A DNA stretch of 64,000 nucleotides from NCBI GenBank assembly GCA_017499595.2, contig CM039009.1:2170001-2234000 (forward strand), read 5' to 3'. This document shows, in pieces, positions 347-31,849 of this stretch. A model generated the notes under the pieces. It was not told the DNA's origin. It did no database searches and was given only the letters and a program-made list of their open reading frames with translations. Source of the DNA: Psilocybe cubensis. Taxonomy: Eukaryota. The stretch's first letter is position 1. Every line of letters starts with the position of its first letter. The translations under genes and the position numbers were made by a program.

Positions 347-2839
347 ATGAGTCCCAGCCGGGGCTACAGTGGAGGAAGAGGGGGGTATCCGTACGGCTAC
401 AGCGGAAATTGGTATGCTAACCCGTATGCCAATGCGTACAGTGGATCTACAAATTCGTATGGGAATGCCTACTCTGATTATTCATACAATGAAGGGAACC
501 ATGGATACTCTCACTACGAGCACCACCAGCAATACCCTCACGTTGAACAACATCGGTCGCAACAGTATCAGGCCGAAAACAATCAACAAGATAATTATTA
601 TCATCAGCCATACCCACAACGATATTCCCAACAACAATATTCGCACCAACATTCCCAATATCACGATACTTACCCAGACAGCACACAAAATCCACCCCGC
701 CGTCGGGCGTCGCCCTCGTACGACGACTACGACGTCAGTAGCGCGGCCCGAGCACAGTCGTCAAGAGGATACAGCACATACTCTTCTTCTCGGTCTTCAT
801 CATCACCCAGAAGATCTGACCCGTCGCGTCGTCCAAGTTCACCCTCGGAAATTCTTTTAATGCCCCCCTCGTCCATGTCCACGGAACTCCTCGCGTCTCG
901 TGGGACTTCACACTCGCCTCGGCCTCGTAGTGCCAGCCCACCACCCCCGAGGCGAACAGAACCAAGGGAGGAGTACCTTCGCTTATCGCAGGAGCCCTCA
1001 TCATACGTTGAAGCTCCTGAAAAGGCGCGAAAGCTCATCGTACTCGACCTGAACGGGTCCTTGCTCTTGCGCAGTGCTCATCAAAGGCGTCTTCCGACTC
1101 CTCGACAAGCACCTCATTCTCAGGACCAATCAACCGATCCATATGCAGACCCCACAGTTTTACGCCCCCTACGAGTCGTACACCCCCGTCCATATCTCTC
1201 CTCTTTTATCACCTACATCTTGCACCCGAAAACTAAACAGTGGCTTGACACCATGGTCTGGAGCTCAGCACAACCGCATAGCGTCAACGATATGGTTGAT
1301 AAATGTTTCAAGGAACGAAGGCAAGAGCTTAAAGCTGTGTGGGCAAGAGATACGTTGGGGCTGACGAACAATGAATATCGTGAGTTTGGGCTTATCGACG
1401 AATAGATTTACTCATAGTCATTGGCATTTTTGATAGACAGAAAGACTTTGACATTAAAAGACCTTGAAAAACCATGGGCGGAACTCCCCTTGGTCTCTTC
1501 TAACGATCCAAAACCCCCGTCCGATAGGCCTCCACCACCTACCAGCTCTTCTCCGACTTCCGACTCTGTCTCACTTCCCAACGGTGCTGCTGAATCTGAT
1601 CCCCCGGCCACTACATCACAAACCACTCATTCTGCTCGCACAACACTCCTTATCGACGATTCGCCTCTCAAAGCAGCCCTCCAGCCATGGAACCACCTCG
1701 TTATTCCCGAGTACGTCCAGGAAATGCGTAACAAAGATTTGAAGGTCGCCGAACTCGTGAGGGAGAAGGAAATGGTACAGGATAGAACAACGGAGCAGTC
1801 CCAGGACAAAGAAACGGGTGCAACAGTCAGCGAAGATCTCACCGATGAAATCAAGGCCGACGCCTTGTCACAACCTCTCTCTGATGCAGTCCCTGCACCT
1901 GTCGAAATCAACGCTCCGTCTGCAGCATCCGATTCTCACTTGGAGACATCTGCCGCTGACAATGGTCCCGATGCCACCGCGGACACGCAGTCCAATCGTG
2001 CCCTCAAACGTTTGCAAAAGAAAGAGGCTGGAAAACTAAAACGTGCTGAAGAGCATGCGAAGCGGATATCGGAAGTCGTAGGGGACCAAAAGTTCGACCA
2101 AACACTGCTTGCTGTTATTGGAATTTTGGACAGGGTGAAATGGGAGGACAATGTAGCCGGTTGGATGAGATCTGGGGGATTAGTAAACGTGGAGGGTGTT
2201 AATGTACACCACTTCACTGGAGAAACTTCTGTGAAGGACGCCGGTGTGCCCACACTGCAGTCAGTCCCGGATTTAGAGAATGAAAGGGAGGAGGAGACAT
2301 CAAAGCGCCCACTGTCCCACACGCCACCTACAAGGAGCCGTGACGCGTCTGCCTCCCCGTCCCCTGATGATGGCACAATCCCAGGATCGGGTTCAAAGAA
2401 GAGGAGGCGAGTCAGTGATCAGGCAGAGAACCTTTCAACTGTTGAGGAAGCAGCCCTTGATACGGGGATGGATACCTCGGTGGATGGGGCAGTATCGCAG
2501 CCCAACGAGGCGACCTCGACGGACATATCTTTAGCTCAGATGCAGTCGACTCAGGCCCAACCGGATGATCAAGAGAAAATTGAAGAAGAAAAGGCGGAGC
2601 AATCGGCAACAGGCATTCCCGTAATTTCAAGCCCCAATTCTATGCTTGTCCCTCAACCCCCAAATCCATTATGTGATGACGATGGAGAGCAGAGCAAATC
2701 TTTAAAATTGTGGTACGAATATCCTGAGGTTCTCGCGTTCTGGGCGGAGAGGGGGCAGAGGGCGTTGGGCGAGTTGGGTATAGAGGTTACGAGTGGCATT
2801 CTACTAAACGGAAGTGCAAGGAGAAAAGTTAGTACTTAA
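347..2839 (+). CDS. FCP1/NIF-like HAD-superfamily phosphatase-domain protein with a low-complexity Tyr/Gln/Ser-rich N-terminus (2 exons, intron 1380-1436)
   Basis: Motifs LIVLDLNGSLLLR, RPYL, MVWSSAQPHSV, VWARD, KDLEKPW and TLLIDDSPLKA..QPWNH. A GTGAGT...TAG intron joins ORF 329..1405 to ORF 1421..2839 in frame (NEY|HRKTLTLKDL). Confidence 0.85.
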
Positions 2840-10574: not shown

Positions 10575-11806
10575 CACTAGAGCAGTACCGGGAACGGCTG
10601 GGTTTATAGGACGCACTTGAAGTAGCATTGATTATACCCAAAGACTCTAAGAAGACTGGTAAATATTTTATTACTCAATTTTCTAATCCAAATGTTACAC
10701 TTTTTGCCATAATTTTGTTGGTGTTGATTGATTGACGCCCCGCAGGGGAGAAATTTTCTATATTTGGGAGTACCCCTGAGGAGGTCTGTCTGGTTTTGCG
10801 GATTTGAGACCTCAATTGTCACGGATTTGAGGGCCAAAATCAGCAAAATTCCGGACAATCCTTTAGTGGAGCTTCCCAGGTCTGACAACCGCGAACTGCA
10901 AACCACAAAATTGTTTGCATTCTGGACACTGATGAAGATAGGATCCGACATCAGAGACATTGTTGGCATTGGTTAATGCACGGTGGTGGACTGTCGTGGT
11001 TTTCCAGGGCCATCATCCCTATTTACACCACTACATAACTAGCATAGGTATACTGAGGAAGATGCAAAGCAAAATAAATACTGATACATTCTCATGGGTT
11101 CCCTCAAGCTTGCCTCAAGCTGGCTATATTCCTGGTTAAATTTCTAATACTCGGAAGAAGTTTAATCTTGGAAGAACTGACTGCATTCCTCTCCTACTTA
11201 TGTGCATGAATATATTTATGATTTTTTATTTGTGTGTCATTGAAATCACCATGATAGCAGGAACTAGTAACTACAATAATCAAATGGAATGCCTGGCTCA
11301 CAAGGATATCCAAATTTCTCTTGATTAGGTCAGTCGATGGTCCTCAACGGGTGGCTGCTTGTGCTTCTTTCTTTGGCTCTTGACAAGTAAATTTGTCGTT
11401 TGTGGTTCGCTGTTTAATGTTTGCGCCCAGTTGCGGTTCACCAATTGGGTAAGACCAGACTTGGAGCAACCGGTTGATAACAGAGTGATTGGGACGAGAC
11501 TGGGGGTCCCAATCTAACTTGTTATACCAGGTGATGAAATGTATTGTGCGAGTGGGTCTAAAAATGAGAAAAACCAAAACCAGCTACTGATTTAGGCGTA
11601 TTTGATGAATTTTGTATCGTCTTCTCTCCATTTAAACTGAATTTAGAATGGTTTAAATGGAGAGAAGACGATACAAAATTAAAATATTCTTTGACACTAG
11701 AAAGTGTCCCAATGATCCGCAATTCTGGCCTCAAATCCGCCAGATCCGGAAAGTGAAACGCCAATTTTTTAGTCGTTAGCGCCTCAACGTTCTTGGGTCA
11801 CTAGCA
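10575..11806. mobile_element. Possible degenerate non-autonomous DNA-transposon/MITE-like remnant
   Basis: AT-rich non-coding block. It has a degenerate inverted match (CGGATTTGAGGGCCAAAAT at 10822-10840 vs the reverse complement of ~11722-11739), an internal 30-bp palindrome, and CACTAG at both edges. Clean TIRs and a TSD are not evident. Confidence 0.3.
11608..11680. repeat. Perfect 30-bp inverted repeat with a 13-nt spacer
   Basis: AATTTTGTATCGTCTTCTCTCCATTTAAAC (11608-11637) is the exact reverse complement of 11651-11680. Confidence 0.95.
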
Positions 11807-26503: not shown

Positions 26504-29247
26504 ATGGCTGCTCTCATCGCCGTATCTACAAACTTTTTCAACCTCGCCGTTGGCCCCCCACTGGCCTTCGTCGGAGGTGCCATCTGCAACGCCGTGCTCA
26601 ATTTCATTCCCGCCCTTCCCAAACAAGTGGGATTGAGCGTCGGACTTCAACGCGTCGTTGGTATCGCTGGTGTTGCCAGCGTTATCTCACTCGACGCCGG
26701 CTTCCGTTACTACAAGGAAGTTGGCATCGCCCCAGTCAACTATGCTGCCGCCGAAGCTCCTTCGGCGGACTCTTCTGGCAGCCTTACTACCCAATCCGCC
26801 ATCGACGCGCAGACTCAAGGGGTGCCAGCTGTGCAAGCTGCCACCTCTGCTGCAGGAGAGGCATCGGCACCGGACACTGGGGCTTCAGGTATGTTTTAAT
26901 CAACGGCGTGGTATATCCTTGCTCATAAAAATGTTATTATTCAGGTAACAACAATGGCGAGGATGACAACGATACTCCCCATAACGGCGATGGTTCACAA
27001 ATTGGCAAAGGCGATGCAAAGGGTGGTGAGTACTTCGATATATATTGTAGTCGCAATCACTTATTCTCTCGAAGAATCTTCTCCCAACCGCAAAGGCGGG
27101 GAGCCAGTAAATGCACCACCACCCCCGCCACCCCCGCCACCACCCTCGCCTGGTTCTGAGGTCAATGACGACCCAACCCCGCTGTCGGTTTTCAAGCTAT
27201 GGCTACTCCTTCTATTGGCGTCGATCCCGATGGGCATTGCAGCCATCATATACCGGCTTCGACTAAAGGCAAGAAAGGCGAAGAACAAGGGCAGAAGGAA
27301 ACCCATCAAGCTTCTCAAGAACGCGTGCCCAGTCTTCGCGTTCCCCACCGGCCAGTGCCCAGTTGGCGGGCCCGATACATTCACCAAAGCCATTATCCCG
27401 CCTCCCAAAGAGGTACTCACTATCAAACCTCAAGTTGAAGAAGTGGCATTGGGTCCTTCGCCAGAGCCCGCAGTATTCAATGAAACAGCTTCCCCTGTAG
27501 AAGAAGAGGTTCAGTCTTTCGCCTCTAAACCTTCAGAAACTGTCAGCCCCACTCTGAAGAAGAGGTTTGAGTCCACTACGTCAAGAATGCCATACCGATC
27601 TCCAACCAACATCGCCTTCCGTATCCTCAGTGATATTGTCTACCGCATTTTTCTTATTTTCTACATCCTCCTCATCGAAAACTTCCTGTTCACCCTCTGC
27701 ACCATACTTGTTATGTCCGTGATGTCATTCTTGCACAAAAACGGACTCGCGTTCGGCTGTGGGACAAAGGTTGACAAGAAAAAGGTATGTGACATACATC
27801 TCTTATGTAACCTTTTTATATTGAGTATACTTTTTATAGACTTTCGTCCCCGCGGCTTTCCTTGATGGCAAGGATGACGATGAAGACAAGAACGTCGACG
27901 AGGGTGCTGTAGACCTCATGTCCACACTTTCCACCAGCACCGAGGTCGCGGGAATCGAACGGGACACATTCTACAACACCAGCTTCGAGGCCAACCTCCC
28001 TTCTCAGCCCGACGAACACCCCGAACCCTCCCTCGAGCTCTCTCGTCTCGATTTCGACGAGCACTCCTTCGTCCGAAGGCAGCTTCGCCTCTGGGGATTC
28101 ACCGTGCTCGATGGGGTCGTCGTCGAAGGATTCGAAGAGGAGTCAACCGCTTTTATCGAGGAGGTGAATGATCTGTTGGAGTTAGGTGGATTGATGCAGG
28201 ATAACAGGTCGGGCATCTCTGATGGTCCTACCCTTACCGCGGACATCTTGGAGGGGCCAACCGAGACGACACTCGTTGGGTCCCTGGAGGATATTGTGGC
28301 CGAGGAAGTTACCCAGCCGATTGCACCCCTTGCACCCCTTGCACCCCTCGCCTCTCAGGAGGACCTCTGGACTGACAACGATACCACCAGCTCCATCGAC
28401 ATTCTCACCCCCGTCGAGGAAGTCTCAAGCACCCTCGAGCAGGCCGATGGTGAAGTCGAAATCGAGGCGCGCCCTAACGCGGACATCGAGGCCGTCGTCG
28501 ACGAAGACAGCGAGGACATTCTCGCGGGCCTTGACCGAGTTGTCGAGGAGCACCCTGTCGCTGTCGTTCCCCGCGAGGAGGAAGAGGATGACCAGGATAT
28601 CCTCGCAGGTCTTGACCCAGTCAACAACAAGGTCGGCGGCGGCGTTCCACCTTGCGAGGAGGAGGAGCACGGTCAGGTTGTCGCTGCCCTGGATGAGGTC
28701 ATTCGGGAGGTTATTGAAGAGGAGCCGACGGTCGGCACTCTTGTTGTGGTATGTTTTGCTTTATTTTGGACCAACAATATACTGATCATTATTCGCTGCT
28801 ATTAGTATACTCCCTTGAGGATCACAATGGTTGAAGCCAGCGAGGTCGGTGAGCCTGAGGGATCGGTCGGTGCGCCCGAGGGATCTTTGGTATGTTTGAT
28901 AACATTGTTATGGCTATACATATTTATTTATATGACAATGTCTATAGCCCTCTAATACTTGCACCACGATGGTGGTTTGGCGCCCCTTGCAAGACCCCGC
29001 CCATCATCAAGCTGGGGTTTCCGTCTCACAGATTGAGCTCCGAGATGGATGTCGCGTCCGCCGCCGCAAGCGTTGCCGTCCCAAGAAGAAGATTCAACCC
29101 CCGGCCAAGCCTGAGCCCACTCAAGATGACTCCCAGGCTCAGCCTCAGCCCACTGTGGATGACGCCACTGTGGAAGACTCCCAGGCCCAGCCTCAGCCCA
29201 CAGTGGATGACTCCCAGGCCCAGCCTCAGTCTACTGAAGACAACTAA
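26504..29247 (+). CDS. Orphan ~822-aa membrane protein: hydrophobic N-terminus, poly-Pro, TM helices, long acidic region, Arg/Lys-rich C-terminal motif, DDSQAQPQPTV repeats
   Basis: Six exons (26504-26888, 26945-27025, 27075-27784, 27840-28748, 28806-28889, 28948-29247) splice GT-AG into one open frame of 2469 nt. TATAAAA at ~26396; codons strongly C-ending. I recognise no family. Confidence 0.75.
29125..29241 (+). repeat. Coding tandem repeat, ~33-nt unit x3 (DDSQAQPQPTV)
   Basis: GA(T/A)GACTCCCAGGCYCAGCCTCAG occurs three times, with one partial spacer unit. Confidence 0.9.
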
Positions 29248-29250
29248 GCC

Positions 29251-29706
29251 ACCGCACGAAATATCCTCAAGCGCGATGTAGACCCGAAACGACGACGAGA
29301 ACCAGACTTCGCAGCAAACACTTCCGACGTACTCGAGATCATCGACATCCACCTTCATCACTTCCTATATTCCTTTTCATCCGATTCCTGGGTGCCGACT
29401 GTGGTGGGTCGCTGTCTGACGAGACAGTGATTCGCCGTGTCCGTTGTAGGGTGGGCTTTGCTGTGATGCCCAGAATGTTGACGAGCATTCTGGACATTAC
29501 AGCAAAGCCAACACTGCAGTGGCCAGTCGGGTGCATGAGAGGTAGCGCTGACGAGTGCTACCTTGAATGCAACCCAGGATACCGGACTTTTCTATCCTTT
29601 CTTCTTACTCTCTTTGTGGACTCTCTGATCTCGGGTACATCATCACACCTCGCTGCGAATCATCTCGGTTGTCGCCGTTTTTCCGCGCTATAGAACTTCT
29701 GGCGGT
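29251..29706 (+). ncRNA. Candidate large structured RNA element (3' UTR or independent ncRNA) with three U-GACG-A-capped hairpins
   Basis: Nested complementary segments and three hairpins with TGACGA at 29417, 29479 and 29549. The hairpins contain 11 G-U pairs and 1 A-C mismatch (see findings). Confidence 0.75.
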
Positions 29707-29859
29707 ACGCTCTTTTGGGCTTGGGTTTGGTTCTATTCTTCTTTGGTTCATTTTCTCTTCGGCTCCGGCTTCCAACTATCTTCTTTTCTTTTTTATCAAT
29801 ATCTTATTTTCCTTTCCATATATTCAATATACTCTCTATCTCAGGTCTCTATTCTCTGT

Positions 29860-30133
29860 TTCATTTCTATTTCTATTACCACATTTCTATCTCTCTATCC
29901 CATCTCTACATTTCTACCATATGTCTACATTTCTATGATTTTTCTATTCTACCACATCACTATATCACTACTCCATTTCTATTTTTCTATCACATCTCTA
30001 TCTACCACATTTTCTATATTTCTATTCTACCACATTTCTATATTTCTATCCCATTTCTACATCTCTATCCCATTTCTAATCTATTCTACCACACAAATAT
30101 CATTTTACATTTCTATATTTCTATATTCCTATT
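29860..30133 (+). repeat. Almost G-free low-complexity minisatellite built from ATTTCTAT and CTACCACAT units
   Basis: Repeated ATTTCTA(T/C), CTACCACAT and CTATCCCAT. I count only two G residues on the + strand in ~270 nt. Confidence 0.9.
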
Positions 30134-30531
30134 GTATAAATCTATATATTGTTTTTTTTTCTTCAAATACAATATTTATTCCCTTATTCTTGGAAAGATT
30201 AGCTCCGATTCGGCTTATGTGTGCACAATATATTGTTTAGAAAAAAGCTTTGGAATGGCTTCGTTTAACATTATGTTGTGTTTTAGCCTGGGACTAGTCC
30301 AATGTTCAACGTTCAACGCCAACGACTGGTAAGGTAATGTGAGACCGTTAACTTGTCTGCCAATCAACCATGAATAGAACTTTACACCACTACAAAAACA
30401 AACCCCTTCGTGGGTATGGTGGAACCGGGCAGTACTCATAACTCGAACTCGGTACTCAGTATTCAGACATAACTAAGTTTACGTGAATATTACCATCGGC
30501 TTAGAGCAACGAAATTCAAGTACAGAACTAA

Positions 30532-31365
30532 TTAACAAACGAATTTCTTGAAAGCTTCGTAGCATTGAAGAATACCACGTCGATTATCGAGTGGCTTTAT
30601 GCCTTCGCTGAACCGGCGGCTGGGGCGGGGGATGTCAGGAACATGTCCAGTGACGATGGTGAGAGTAGGAGGATACTGCCCTTGTGCGACGCATCGAGTC
30701 AATTCTTGGGTGACGGGAATCTTGAAGAAACTCGGAGATGTCCCAACCATGATTATACCCGGGATGACCTATGCCCAAGAATGAATAACATTCGTAGTAT
30801 GATTTATTGAAAGCAGACTTACCTTGCTATTCAATGGGTCAAGTCCCGCCGATCGCCTCTGAGCGTTGTTATTCTGGAAGGTGGCTATTGCAGAGGCAAT
30901 GAGTTGAGCATGCGGGTCTGTGTCGCCACCAAATCGCTTATCCTCGTGAACGAGGAGGATGATATCATTTTCATTTCGATCGATAATGCAGACATCGGGT
31001 TTGGCATATTTTTTCTCTCCGCATATGAGAAGTCGTAACTTTTTGCGTGTGCGAACTGCTCGAGGACGATGAAGATAGCCAAGGGAATGGAAAAGTACCA
31101 CTGCGAAATCAACAACTGCCGATTCCTCAGGCTCCGCGGGCATCATTGCAAGATCGAGTTGAGTGAGGAGGCTGTAGGCGATATCGTTGGCTGCGTCGTC
31201 GGCGGTGAGGGCAGTGAATACCTCCTGGCTGACAGCAGGAGCAGGTAAGGGCGTCTCGCCAAAGAATGTCGGAGCATCCTGGAAGGTGATATTGATGTTA
31301 TATGCTTCCAACTCATTGTCGGTCCACTCGTTTCCTGACTTGGCTGAGCGAATAATGTTGGCCAT
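30532..31365 (-). CDS. Agaricomycete PD-(D/E)xK (restriction-endonuclease-like) family hypothetical protein (2 exons)
   Basis: MANIIRSAKSGNEWTDNELEAYNI, ESAVVDFA..L...LGY, AKPDVCII, LLVHEDKR, AQLIA.AIA.FQ.NN, MVGTSPSFFKIPVT..L...V..GQYP, LDNRR.ILQCYEAFK.F. Confidence 0.75.
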
Positions 31366-31849
31366 GATAGCTTGAAGGCAATATACAGGTTCTGTGAGGA
31401 CAAAGCTGCATGCCTGTTGTGGTTTAGAAATGTAGATCCAAACAACATTAGACGCCTTTGCCTGGGCAAATTTGCCAGAGAATTTGCTCAAATTTGCAGC
31501 CAAATATCACGTGGTCTAATTTTATGCCTAATCAACGCAAATTTGCAGGAGAAATAGCATATTTGTCGGTAATTGTGCTACACACAGGCTAACTACTCAC
31601 TAGCACTCCTCATCTGCCGTTGCCAGAGACCCCGTTCAACCTTCAATACCATTAACCACTTCAATGTTGTTTGAGGCCTAATGCTGATTTTGGAAAGGCT
31701 AGTTTGGCATAATAAGGGGATTGTCAGGCGGTCCGAGATTGTCATTGCAGGATTTCCTCAAATATCCTTGAGTCTCTTGTCATGACCGAAGACTGACTTC
31801 ACAAAGTTGCTCAAATCCATCATCTACTAAATCAGCTCCGCATAACACA

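Follow-up and report, generated by a model that had tools for sequence, protein, structure and literature searches.

Gammaretroviruses without exception carry a pair of stem-loops that end in the loop GACG, and when two monomers dimerize, the CG dinucleotides of their loops pair with one another (PMC3265304). An isolated GACG hairpin dimerizes stably with its like; the contact consists of just two G-C pairs, flanked on either side by a stacked adenine (PDB 1F5U and 2L1F; PMC7357161; PMC7599994). The retroviral GACG loops are highly conserved and contribute to dimer stability (PMC5874298; PMC13736810). GACG loops are found at the dimer initiation site (DIS) of Maedi-Visna virus too, and such loops permit different viral RNAs to form heterodimers (PMC516450); GACG tetraloops have also been reported in RD-114 and Harvey sarcoma virus RNA. 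The ACGR-loop contact of the guanidine-II riboswitch has been likened to the retroviral GACG contact (PMC7357161, section 5.4). RNA-RNA multimerization signals described in cellular mRNAs are very few, mainly oskar and bicoid, whose 3′ untranslated region (3′UTR) loops are tabulated as kissing-loop dimerization signals (PMC7357161). Here we describe a folded RNA element with three GACG hairpins in the 3′UTR of a cellular mRNA of the fungus Psilocybe cubensis. It occupies positions 29251-29706 (+ strand) of a 64,000-nucleotide (nt) stretch of contig CM039009.1 (positions 2,170,001 to 2,234,000), which is called the window below. An earlier note, written from the sequence alone, had pointed to this element as a rod-shaped RNA crowned by three hairpins.

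The whole element, made up of a lower rod and a crown, folds on the + strand with a minimum free energy (MFE) of -204.2 kcal/mol (z -11.17). Shuffled sequences gave -136.8 ± 6.0 kcal/mol and 0 of 100 were equally good. The minus strand also beats its shuffles strongly (z -8.3), and the excess is larger on the + strand. The fold is far beyond chance. When the last exon and the 3′UTR were folded together (28948-30031), 149 of the 149 element pairs were retained, with a mean pair probability of 0.89 to 1.0 per helix; the base of the rod (29251-55/29702-06) pairs with a probability of 0.89 in this transcript context. Every helix named in the earlier note is present in the MFE fold where it had been placed, the helices of the lower rod included.

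The crown (29386-29579, 194 nt, + strand) consists of two stacked three-way junctions bearing the hairpins H1, H2 and H3, as seen in the fold and in the comparison with shuffles. Its enclosing helices on the + strand are P1 (29386-93/29572-79) and P2 (29395-401/29524-30). H1 (29403-17/29422-36) has 15 bp with four G·U pairs and no mismatch, and its GACG loop (29418-21) is closed by U-A and then C-G. H2 (29441-79/29484-522, 82 nt) has 39 stem positions with five G·U pairs and three mismatches (G·A, G·A and C·A), and its GACG tetraloop (29480-83) is closed by U-A and then U·G. H3 (29539-49/29554-64) has 11 bp with two G·U pairs and a GACG loop (29550-53) closed by U-A and then C-G; a tandem G·A/A·G links it to a further 5 bp (29532-36/29567-71), and with this extension it spans 29532-29571. 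All three hairpins are on the + strand. A pair census agreed with the numbers of pairs, G·U wobbles and mismatches that had been given for the three hairpins. The common YU-GACG-AG apex on unrelated stems is likewise borne out.

The 8-nt apex YUGACGAG is identical on three stems that lack sequence likeness. The GACG bases of all three hairpins are unpaired with a probability of 1.0 and the closing U-A pair forms with a probability of 0.94 to 0.98. The three hairpins share with the gammaretroviral hairpins the feature of exposed GACG tetraloops. The crown alone folds on the + strand to -127.1 kcal/mol (z -12.5), and 0 of 200 shuffles were equally good. Tetraloop hairpins with at least 10 uninterrupted pairs number seven in the 64-kb window (both strands), and the GACG hairpins described here are three of the seven. 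Elsewhere in the window we found no other GACG-capped stem of more than 5 bp. The motif YTGACGAG as such occurs nine times in the window versus 4.3 expected. The crown is a G-rich island within a G-poor 3′UTR: G accounts for 65 of its 194 bases, for 21 of 135 in the left arm of the rod, 24 of 127 in the right arm and 20 of 325 in the distal UTR.

The host gene lies on the + strand and its gene model has six exons, with the ATG at 26504, the stop codon at 29245-47 and a product of 822 amino acids (aa). The introns are at 26889-944, 27026-74, 27785-839, 28749-805 and 28890-947 (+ strand). The last coding exon (28948-29247, + strand, including the TAA stop at 29245-29247) is supported by the joints of RNA contigs at GT..AG introns and by the gene model. 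One exon encoding 303 aa is 100% identical to an 822-aa database protein (P0001), the hypothetical protein JR316_0012642 (NCBI, Psilocybe cubensis). No Pfam domain was found in the 822-aa host protein. At E ≤ 0.001 a HMMER scan of 1.84 billion cluster representatives gave no more than three matches: the paralogue, a protein of 136 aa that shares 40% identity with the N-terminus, and a weak one in low-complexity sequence. With nothing else at that threshold, the gene merits the label orphan. The C-terminus of the host protein is of low complexity and repetitive. The paralogue (JR316_0009364, P0002; 694 aa) is on a different contig and shows 91% identity across 666 aa; its C-terminus has one additional acidic/Q-rich repeat ahead of the stop. 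The first base of the element, 29251, is the fourth base past the stop codon 29245-47, so the earlier note's placement of the start just behind the stop of an orphan gene holds in both respects.

Thirteen sequencing runs are listed for the region (11 holders, four studies) and four of them were examined, namely X7 and three DNA runs. None is recorded as RNA; two, X7 and X8, were guessed to be, and of these X7 was the one examined and then showed spliced contigs. X7 contains four GT..AG joints at introns of the host gene, and these joints are absent from the three DNA runs. A 1438-nt X7 contig joins 27838-28747, 28805-28888 and 28947-29390; it extends the spliced coding sequence (CDS) beyond the stop codon and ends 140 nt inside the element. 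The sense of the transcript is + because this spliced contig, with its GT..AG introns, passes the stop codon into the element. A second X7 contig spans 29396-30031 and carries no strand mark, and the two contigs jointly cover 451 of the 456 element bases. The element sits in the 3′UTR of the + strand spliced mRNA of the host gene, and the transcription that the earlier note had supposed is thereby found. A gap in X7 at 30146-30387 was not used as evidence for the 3′ end, and contig depths were not used for copy number. At 27755-27867 one X7 contig is unspliced across the intron 27785-27839 and another has the joint, which suggests partial intron retention.

The crown has a marked strand bias. 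It contains 11 G·U against one A·C (one-sided binomial p 0.003), and its RNA folds to -127.1 kcal/mol on the + strand versus -93.8 kcal/mol on the minus strand (z -9.0 on the latter), an advantage of 33 kcal/mol for +. On the minus strand none of the three GACG hairpins reaches 10 uninterrupted pairs. Four of the five crown mismatches are G·A, which is the best tolerated non-canonical pair in RNA. We consider it fairly probable that the crown is maintained by selection on RNA.

We tentatively favor the reading that selection maintains an RNA domain in this 3′UTR and that its three GACG loops may serve as multivalent RNA-RNA kissing contacts; the analysis makes this possible rather than probable. 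The 194-nt crown would be a selected cis-acting RNA domain that presents the same GACG tetraloop three times, in each case on a closing U-A pair and then a Y-G pair. Two GACG loops would pair through their CG dinucleotides, and their adenines would stack on the two-pair helix, in a geometry modeled on the solved gammaretroviral SL-C/SL-D hairpins (SL, stem-loop). With three loops per molecule the mRNA would be multivalent and could form dimers or oligomers with its own copies, perhaps also with the mRNA of the paralogue. Alternatively, two of the loops might lock the crown intramolecularly. The predicted outcome is co-assembly of the mRNA into particles, which might affect storage, transport or translation. 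The lower rod would close the domain and place the stop codon beside base 29707.

Several observations weigh against this reading, and part of them concern the lower rod. The rod is formed on the + strand by a left arm (29251-29385), in which the helices are broken by 10-nt and 33-nt G-poor loops, and a right arm (29580-29706), both assigned from fold and composition. In the + fold it has 64 pairs with two G·U. The minus fold, computed to be the more stable one, has 81 pairs, and each of its 12 G·U appears as an A·C opposition on +. The wobble skew of the lower rod is opposite to that of the crown (two G·U versus about 12 A·C; Fisher p 0.0002), so that over the entire element the two counts are equal, 13:13. 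Because of this reversal, only the crown supports the argument that the + strand RNA is under selection. The earlier note had argued for such selection from 11 G-U versus one A-C; this stands for the crown, with its 11:1 ratio and 33 kcal/mol, and fails for the lower rod (2:12) and for the element as a whole. The complementarity of the lower rod is genuine, but it looks neutral, or else worn down by the low G content of the UTR; the rod does not look selected as + strand RNA. Editing of adenosine to inosine was considered for the A·C oppositions and rejected, as A>G changes are not in excess in X7 across the window (A>G 8, T>C 12, C>T 15, G>A 10).

Further points against kissing come from the contigs, from the variation and from the retroviral comparison. 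The two X7 contigs do not join across 29391-29395. The contigs of all three DNA runs likewise break, at 29397-29426, which we attribute to branching of the assembly between near-identical versions rather than to a biological end. The DNA runs hold a second version that is about 94% alike, with 17 differences in 302 positions (5.6%) over 29397-29698; a point for the favored reading is that the length of this interval is kept save for two one-base indels at 29586 and 29594, both in the pyrimidine-rich loop. It may be the copy of the paralogue or an allele. Its divergence of 5.6% is not below that of the flanks (22/501, 19/219, 16/321 and 17/265, or 4.4-8.7%). The element is known from one species only. 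The gammaretroviral pair sits in the 5′ leader, whereas a spliced cellular mRNA carries the fungal element, in its 3′UTR. The retroviral hairpins act together with palindromic DIS stem-loops, and the fungal element has none. UCUG-UPu-UCUG sites (at most one mismatch) number nine in the window versus 8.23 expected, with none in 29251-29706. The loop-closing pair of the fungal hairpins is U-A, and in the parts of the GACG literature covered we found no statement that kissing tolerates U-A.

The loops could serve a protein instead. It is possible, though doubtful, that the Y-U-GACG-A-G apexes bind one RNA-binding protein in up to three copies and in this way control stability, translation or localization of the mRNA. 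The structural facts behind it (fold, rarity and exposed loops) are the same as those behind kissing. Beyond them, conservation reaches the two closing pairs, further than the strict two-base need of kissing, and this is typical of a protein that recognizes a loop together with the top of its stem. Clustered hairpins have precedents in the iron-responsive elements (IREs) of the transferrin-receptor 3′UTR and in the Smaug recognition elements of nanos. However, none of the loop consensus sequences familiar to us (Smaug/Vts1 CNGGN, Rnt1 AGNN, IRE CAGUGN, Ire1 CNGNNGN) fits by eye, we have no candidate protein, and the motif occurs on no other mRNA in the window. The earlier note had proposed a protein-binding platform and had recognized no known fungal RNA in the element; in the literature covered, hairpins with a GACG tetraloop have been described as a motif of retroviral dimer-linkage and packaging RNAs. 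We regard kissing as at least as good an explanation as a protein platform because the GACG hairpin is such a described motif. The words packaging-like signal, also used in that note, came near this retroviral motif. The element does not itself belong to the retroviral family: it is in a cellular 3′UTR, it has no flanks resembling long terminal repeats (LTRs), no UCUG-UPu-UCUG sites and no match to a retroviral covariance model, and among the Rfam matches at E ≤ 10 over 28800-30200 there is no retroviral family, nor any sequence homology to a retroviral signal. A further version, in which a retrovirus-like GACG platform drives the mRNA, perhaps together with that of the paralogue, into higher-order multimeric assemblies, or into co-packaging by a Gag-like capsid-forming protein of a resident retrotransposon, seems quite improbable to us. 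Such a platform would be a convergent, host-encoded counterpart of the retroviral dimer-linkage/packaging signal.

Readings without a role for the three loops have to be weighed as well. The element may be an old inverted duplication or foldback insertion that is decaying in the 3′UTR, with loops that were inherited and no function in the mRNA. The element as a whole is indeed one interrupted palindrome with the H2 loop at its center, and the advantage over shuffles is large on the minus strand too (z -8.3). The A·C-heavy lower rod (12 versus 2 on +) and the 13:13 balance of the whole fit neutral decay, as does a second version that has diverged as much as its flanks, and the host gene is a young orphan whose product ends in low-complexity, repetitive sequence. 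Against this stand the 11:1 skew of the crown and the 33 kcal/mol by which its + strand is more stable. H1 and H3 are at mirror positions, yet they are not mirror copies, and all three GACG loops are on the same strand. The large internal loop of the rod is pyrimidine-rich on both sides (29353-29385, 26 of 33 pyrimidines and one G; 29580-29615, 30 of 36 pyrimidines and two G; both + strand). Since both sides are pyrimidine-rich and G-poor on the same strand, this loop is not a decayed mirror copy. The helices of the lower rod are separated by internal loops of 10×10 and 33×36; in both loops either side is pyrimidine-rich, and neither 10-nt side has a G. A search of the 64-kb window for a second copy, for flanking direct repeats or LTR-like flanks and for a target-site duplication found none, and none of the contigs of the four runs examined fits two places in the window. 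A neutral remnant is on balance unlikely. Cleavage by Dicer or RNase III of H2 and the other stems, which would yield microRNA-like small RNAs and/or destabilize the host mRNA, is in our view very improbable. H2 has the shape of a microRNA precursor and the best Rfam matches are to microRNA hairpin families (mir-1285, 29.2 bits, E 0.003), but all 11 matches are far under the gathering score and alike on both strands, the identical loops on three stems are left unexplained, and the contigs that cover 451 of 456 bases mean that full-length forms exist. We give equally little credence to a role in compaction of the 3′UTR, in which the pairing 29251-55/29702-06 would remove about 456 nt between the terminating ribosome and the poly(A) tail, present CU-rich loops, and could shield a 3′UTR of at least about 785 nt from nonsense-mediated decay. 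Precedents are fold-back 3′UTRs and the stability element that closely follows the gag stop codon in Rous sarcoma virus. The start of the element at the fourth base past the stop, the extension of an RNA contig to 30031, the pair probability of 0.89 at the rod base in the transcript and the large pyrimidine-rich internal loops are consistent with it. However, the compacting part would be the lower rod, which has no + strand bias, and here too the three identical loops find no explanation.

Known RNA classes were examined as well. Rfam at E ≤ 10 gave 11 matches over 28800-30200 (microRNA hairpins, mcrA and sR52), which reflect hairpin shape only; no family reaches threshold, in line with the earlier note, which had named no known fungal RNA. 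As a member of a microRNA precursor family the element was rejected: its best match, mir-1285, compares with a gathering score of 56 and is found on both strands alike. A hammerhead ribozyme was rejected too. The CUGACGA of H1 and H3 is a hairpin apex, there is no GAAA/helix III arrangement, and no hammerhead is among the Rfam matches at E ≤ 10. For an Ire1 hairpin of the HAC1/XBP1 type, with its 7-nt CNGNNGN loop, the loops here can be read as 4, 6 or 8 nt, and H2 has U for the first C. The Rnt1 AGNN and Smaug/Vts1 loop motifs do not match, by eye or by scan. A 151-codon open frame runs through the element (29238-29693, + strand), in -1 relative to the host CDS, and 20 of 3000 dinucleotide shuffles are as open. 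A coding reading of this frame was rejected, as a start codon near its 5′ end and a slippery heptamer ahead of the stop are both lacking.

Relatives were sought in viral and metagenome contigs with patterns of three TGACGAG apexes at matching spacing (at least 120 loci in each set). Among the 228 matches listed in viral contigs none has three stems of at least 6 bp. With a stricter pattern, 11 of the 334 matches listed in metagenome contigs have at least two stems of at least 5 bp, and all 11 are in four loci (L173, L222, L224 and L228) that are tandem arrays repeating one stem. A blastn comparison of the element with the 240 listed viral and metagenome loci gave no match. At 1313-1951 (minus strand) of L173 there are about 10 repeat copies, 70 to 72 nt apart, with a TGACGAG hairpin apex and variable spacers; this array resembles clustered regularly interspaced short palindromic repeats (CRISPR) and is unrelated to the element.

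Downstream of the element the distal 3′UTR (29707-30031, + strand), defined by the X7 contig 29396-30031, by composition and by a repeat search, has 244 pyrimidines and 20 G in 325 bases and contains degenerate TTTCTAT-like repeats. Such repeats occupy 29835-30132, in the distal 3′UTR and beyond, and are length-polymorphic between runs. Length variants include a 19-nt insertion behind 30030 in run X9 and one-base indels at 29756 and 29807. A convergent 245-aa open reading frame without a Pfam match lies at 30772-31506 (minus strand), flanked on its 3′ side by an X7 contig (30424-30597). At 11608-11680 two 30-nt arms, 13 nt apart, form a perfect inverted repeat, the sole 100%-complementary pair in a window-wide scan.

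In the literature covered, retroviral RNAs are the only ones for which the minimal GACG kissing module is described. We found no literature linking kissing loops to basidiomycete 3′UTRs and, among the papers listed, judged by titles and abstract beginnings, none on GACG loops in cellular mRNAs. Structured 3′UTR elements and GACG kissing hairpins are both known; the interest lies mainly in a retroviral-type loop found three times in a cellular fungal mRNA, for which our literature searches gave no earlier description. If the loops kiss, the crown would be a compact and engineerable case of multivalent mRNA self-association in a fungus, and host 3′UTR and viral packaging domain would have converged. 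Should they bind a protein, a new loop-recognition code would be defined. Either way the crown, at 194 nt and very stable, is a small and clean target for structure probing.

Comparison with known systems sets the element apart from each of them in some respect. Foldback and MITE-like insertions (MITE, miniature inverted-repeat transposable element) share with it an inverted repeat of a few hundred bases that forms a rod on either strand; in contrast to them, the 64 kb hold neither a second copy of it nor terminal repeats or a target duplication, its crown is strand-biased, and its internal loops are not mirror images. The transferrin-receptor IREs and the nanos Smaug recognition elements are alike in that one loop is repeated on different stems within a larger 3′UTR fold, but their loop consensus, as we know it, does not fit GACG. 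The guanidine-II riboswitch (mini-ykkC) is alike in its tandem hairpins with the same short loop and in its C-G/G-C kissing (PMC7357161); it was rejected as an identity, as it has an ACGR loop with Watson-Crick closing in a bacterial 5′UTR, versus GACG closed by U-A in a eukaryotic 3′UTR, and it gave no Rfam match. Drosophila oskar and bicoid have a large folded 3′UTR domain with exposed loops for intermolecular pairing, which leads to co-assembly and co-transport (PMC7357161). They use six-nucleotide contacts with one site per interaction, whereas the fungal crown would make three two-base contacts; there is no homology and the lineage is different. The gammaretroviral SL-C/SL-D hairpins (SL1/SL2) are a tandem pair, in contrast to three hairpins on two three-way junctions here. 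They are alike in presenting several GACG-capped hairpins on unrelated stems, with exposed loops, within one folded non-coding domain. CG/CG kissing with stacked adenines is a physical property of the loop, independent of the organism. Because this property belongs to the loop itself, it is possible that the fungal crown works like the retroviral GACG pair.

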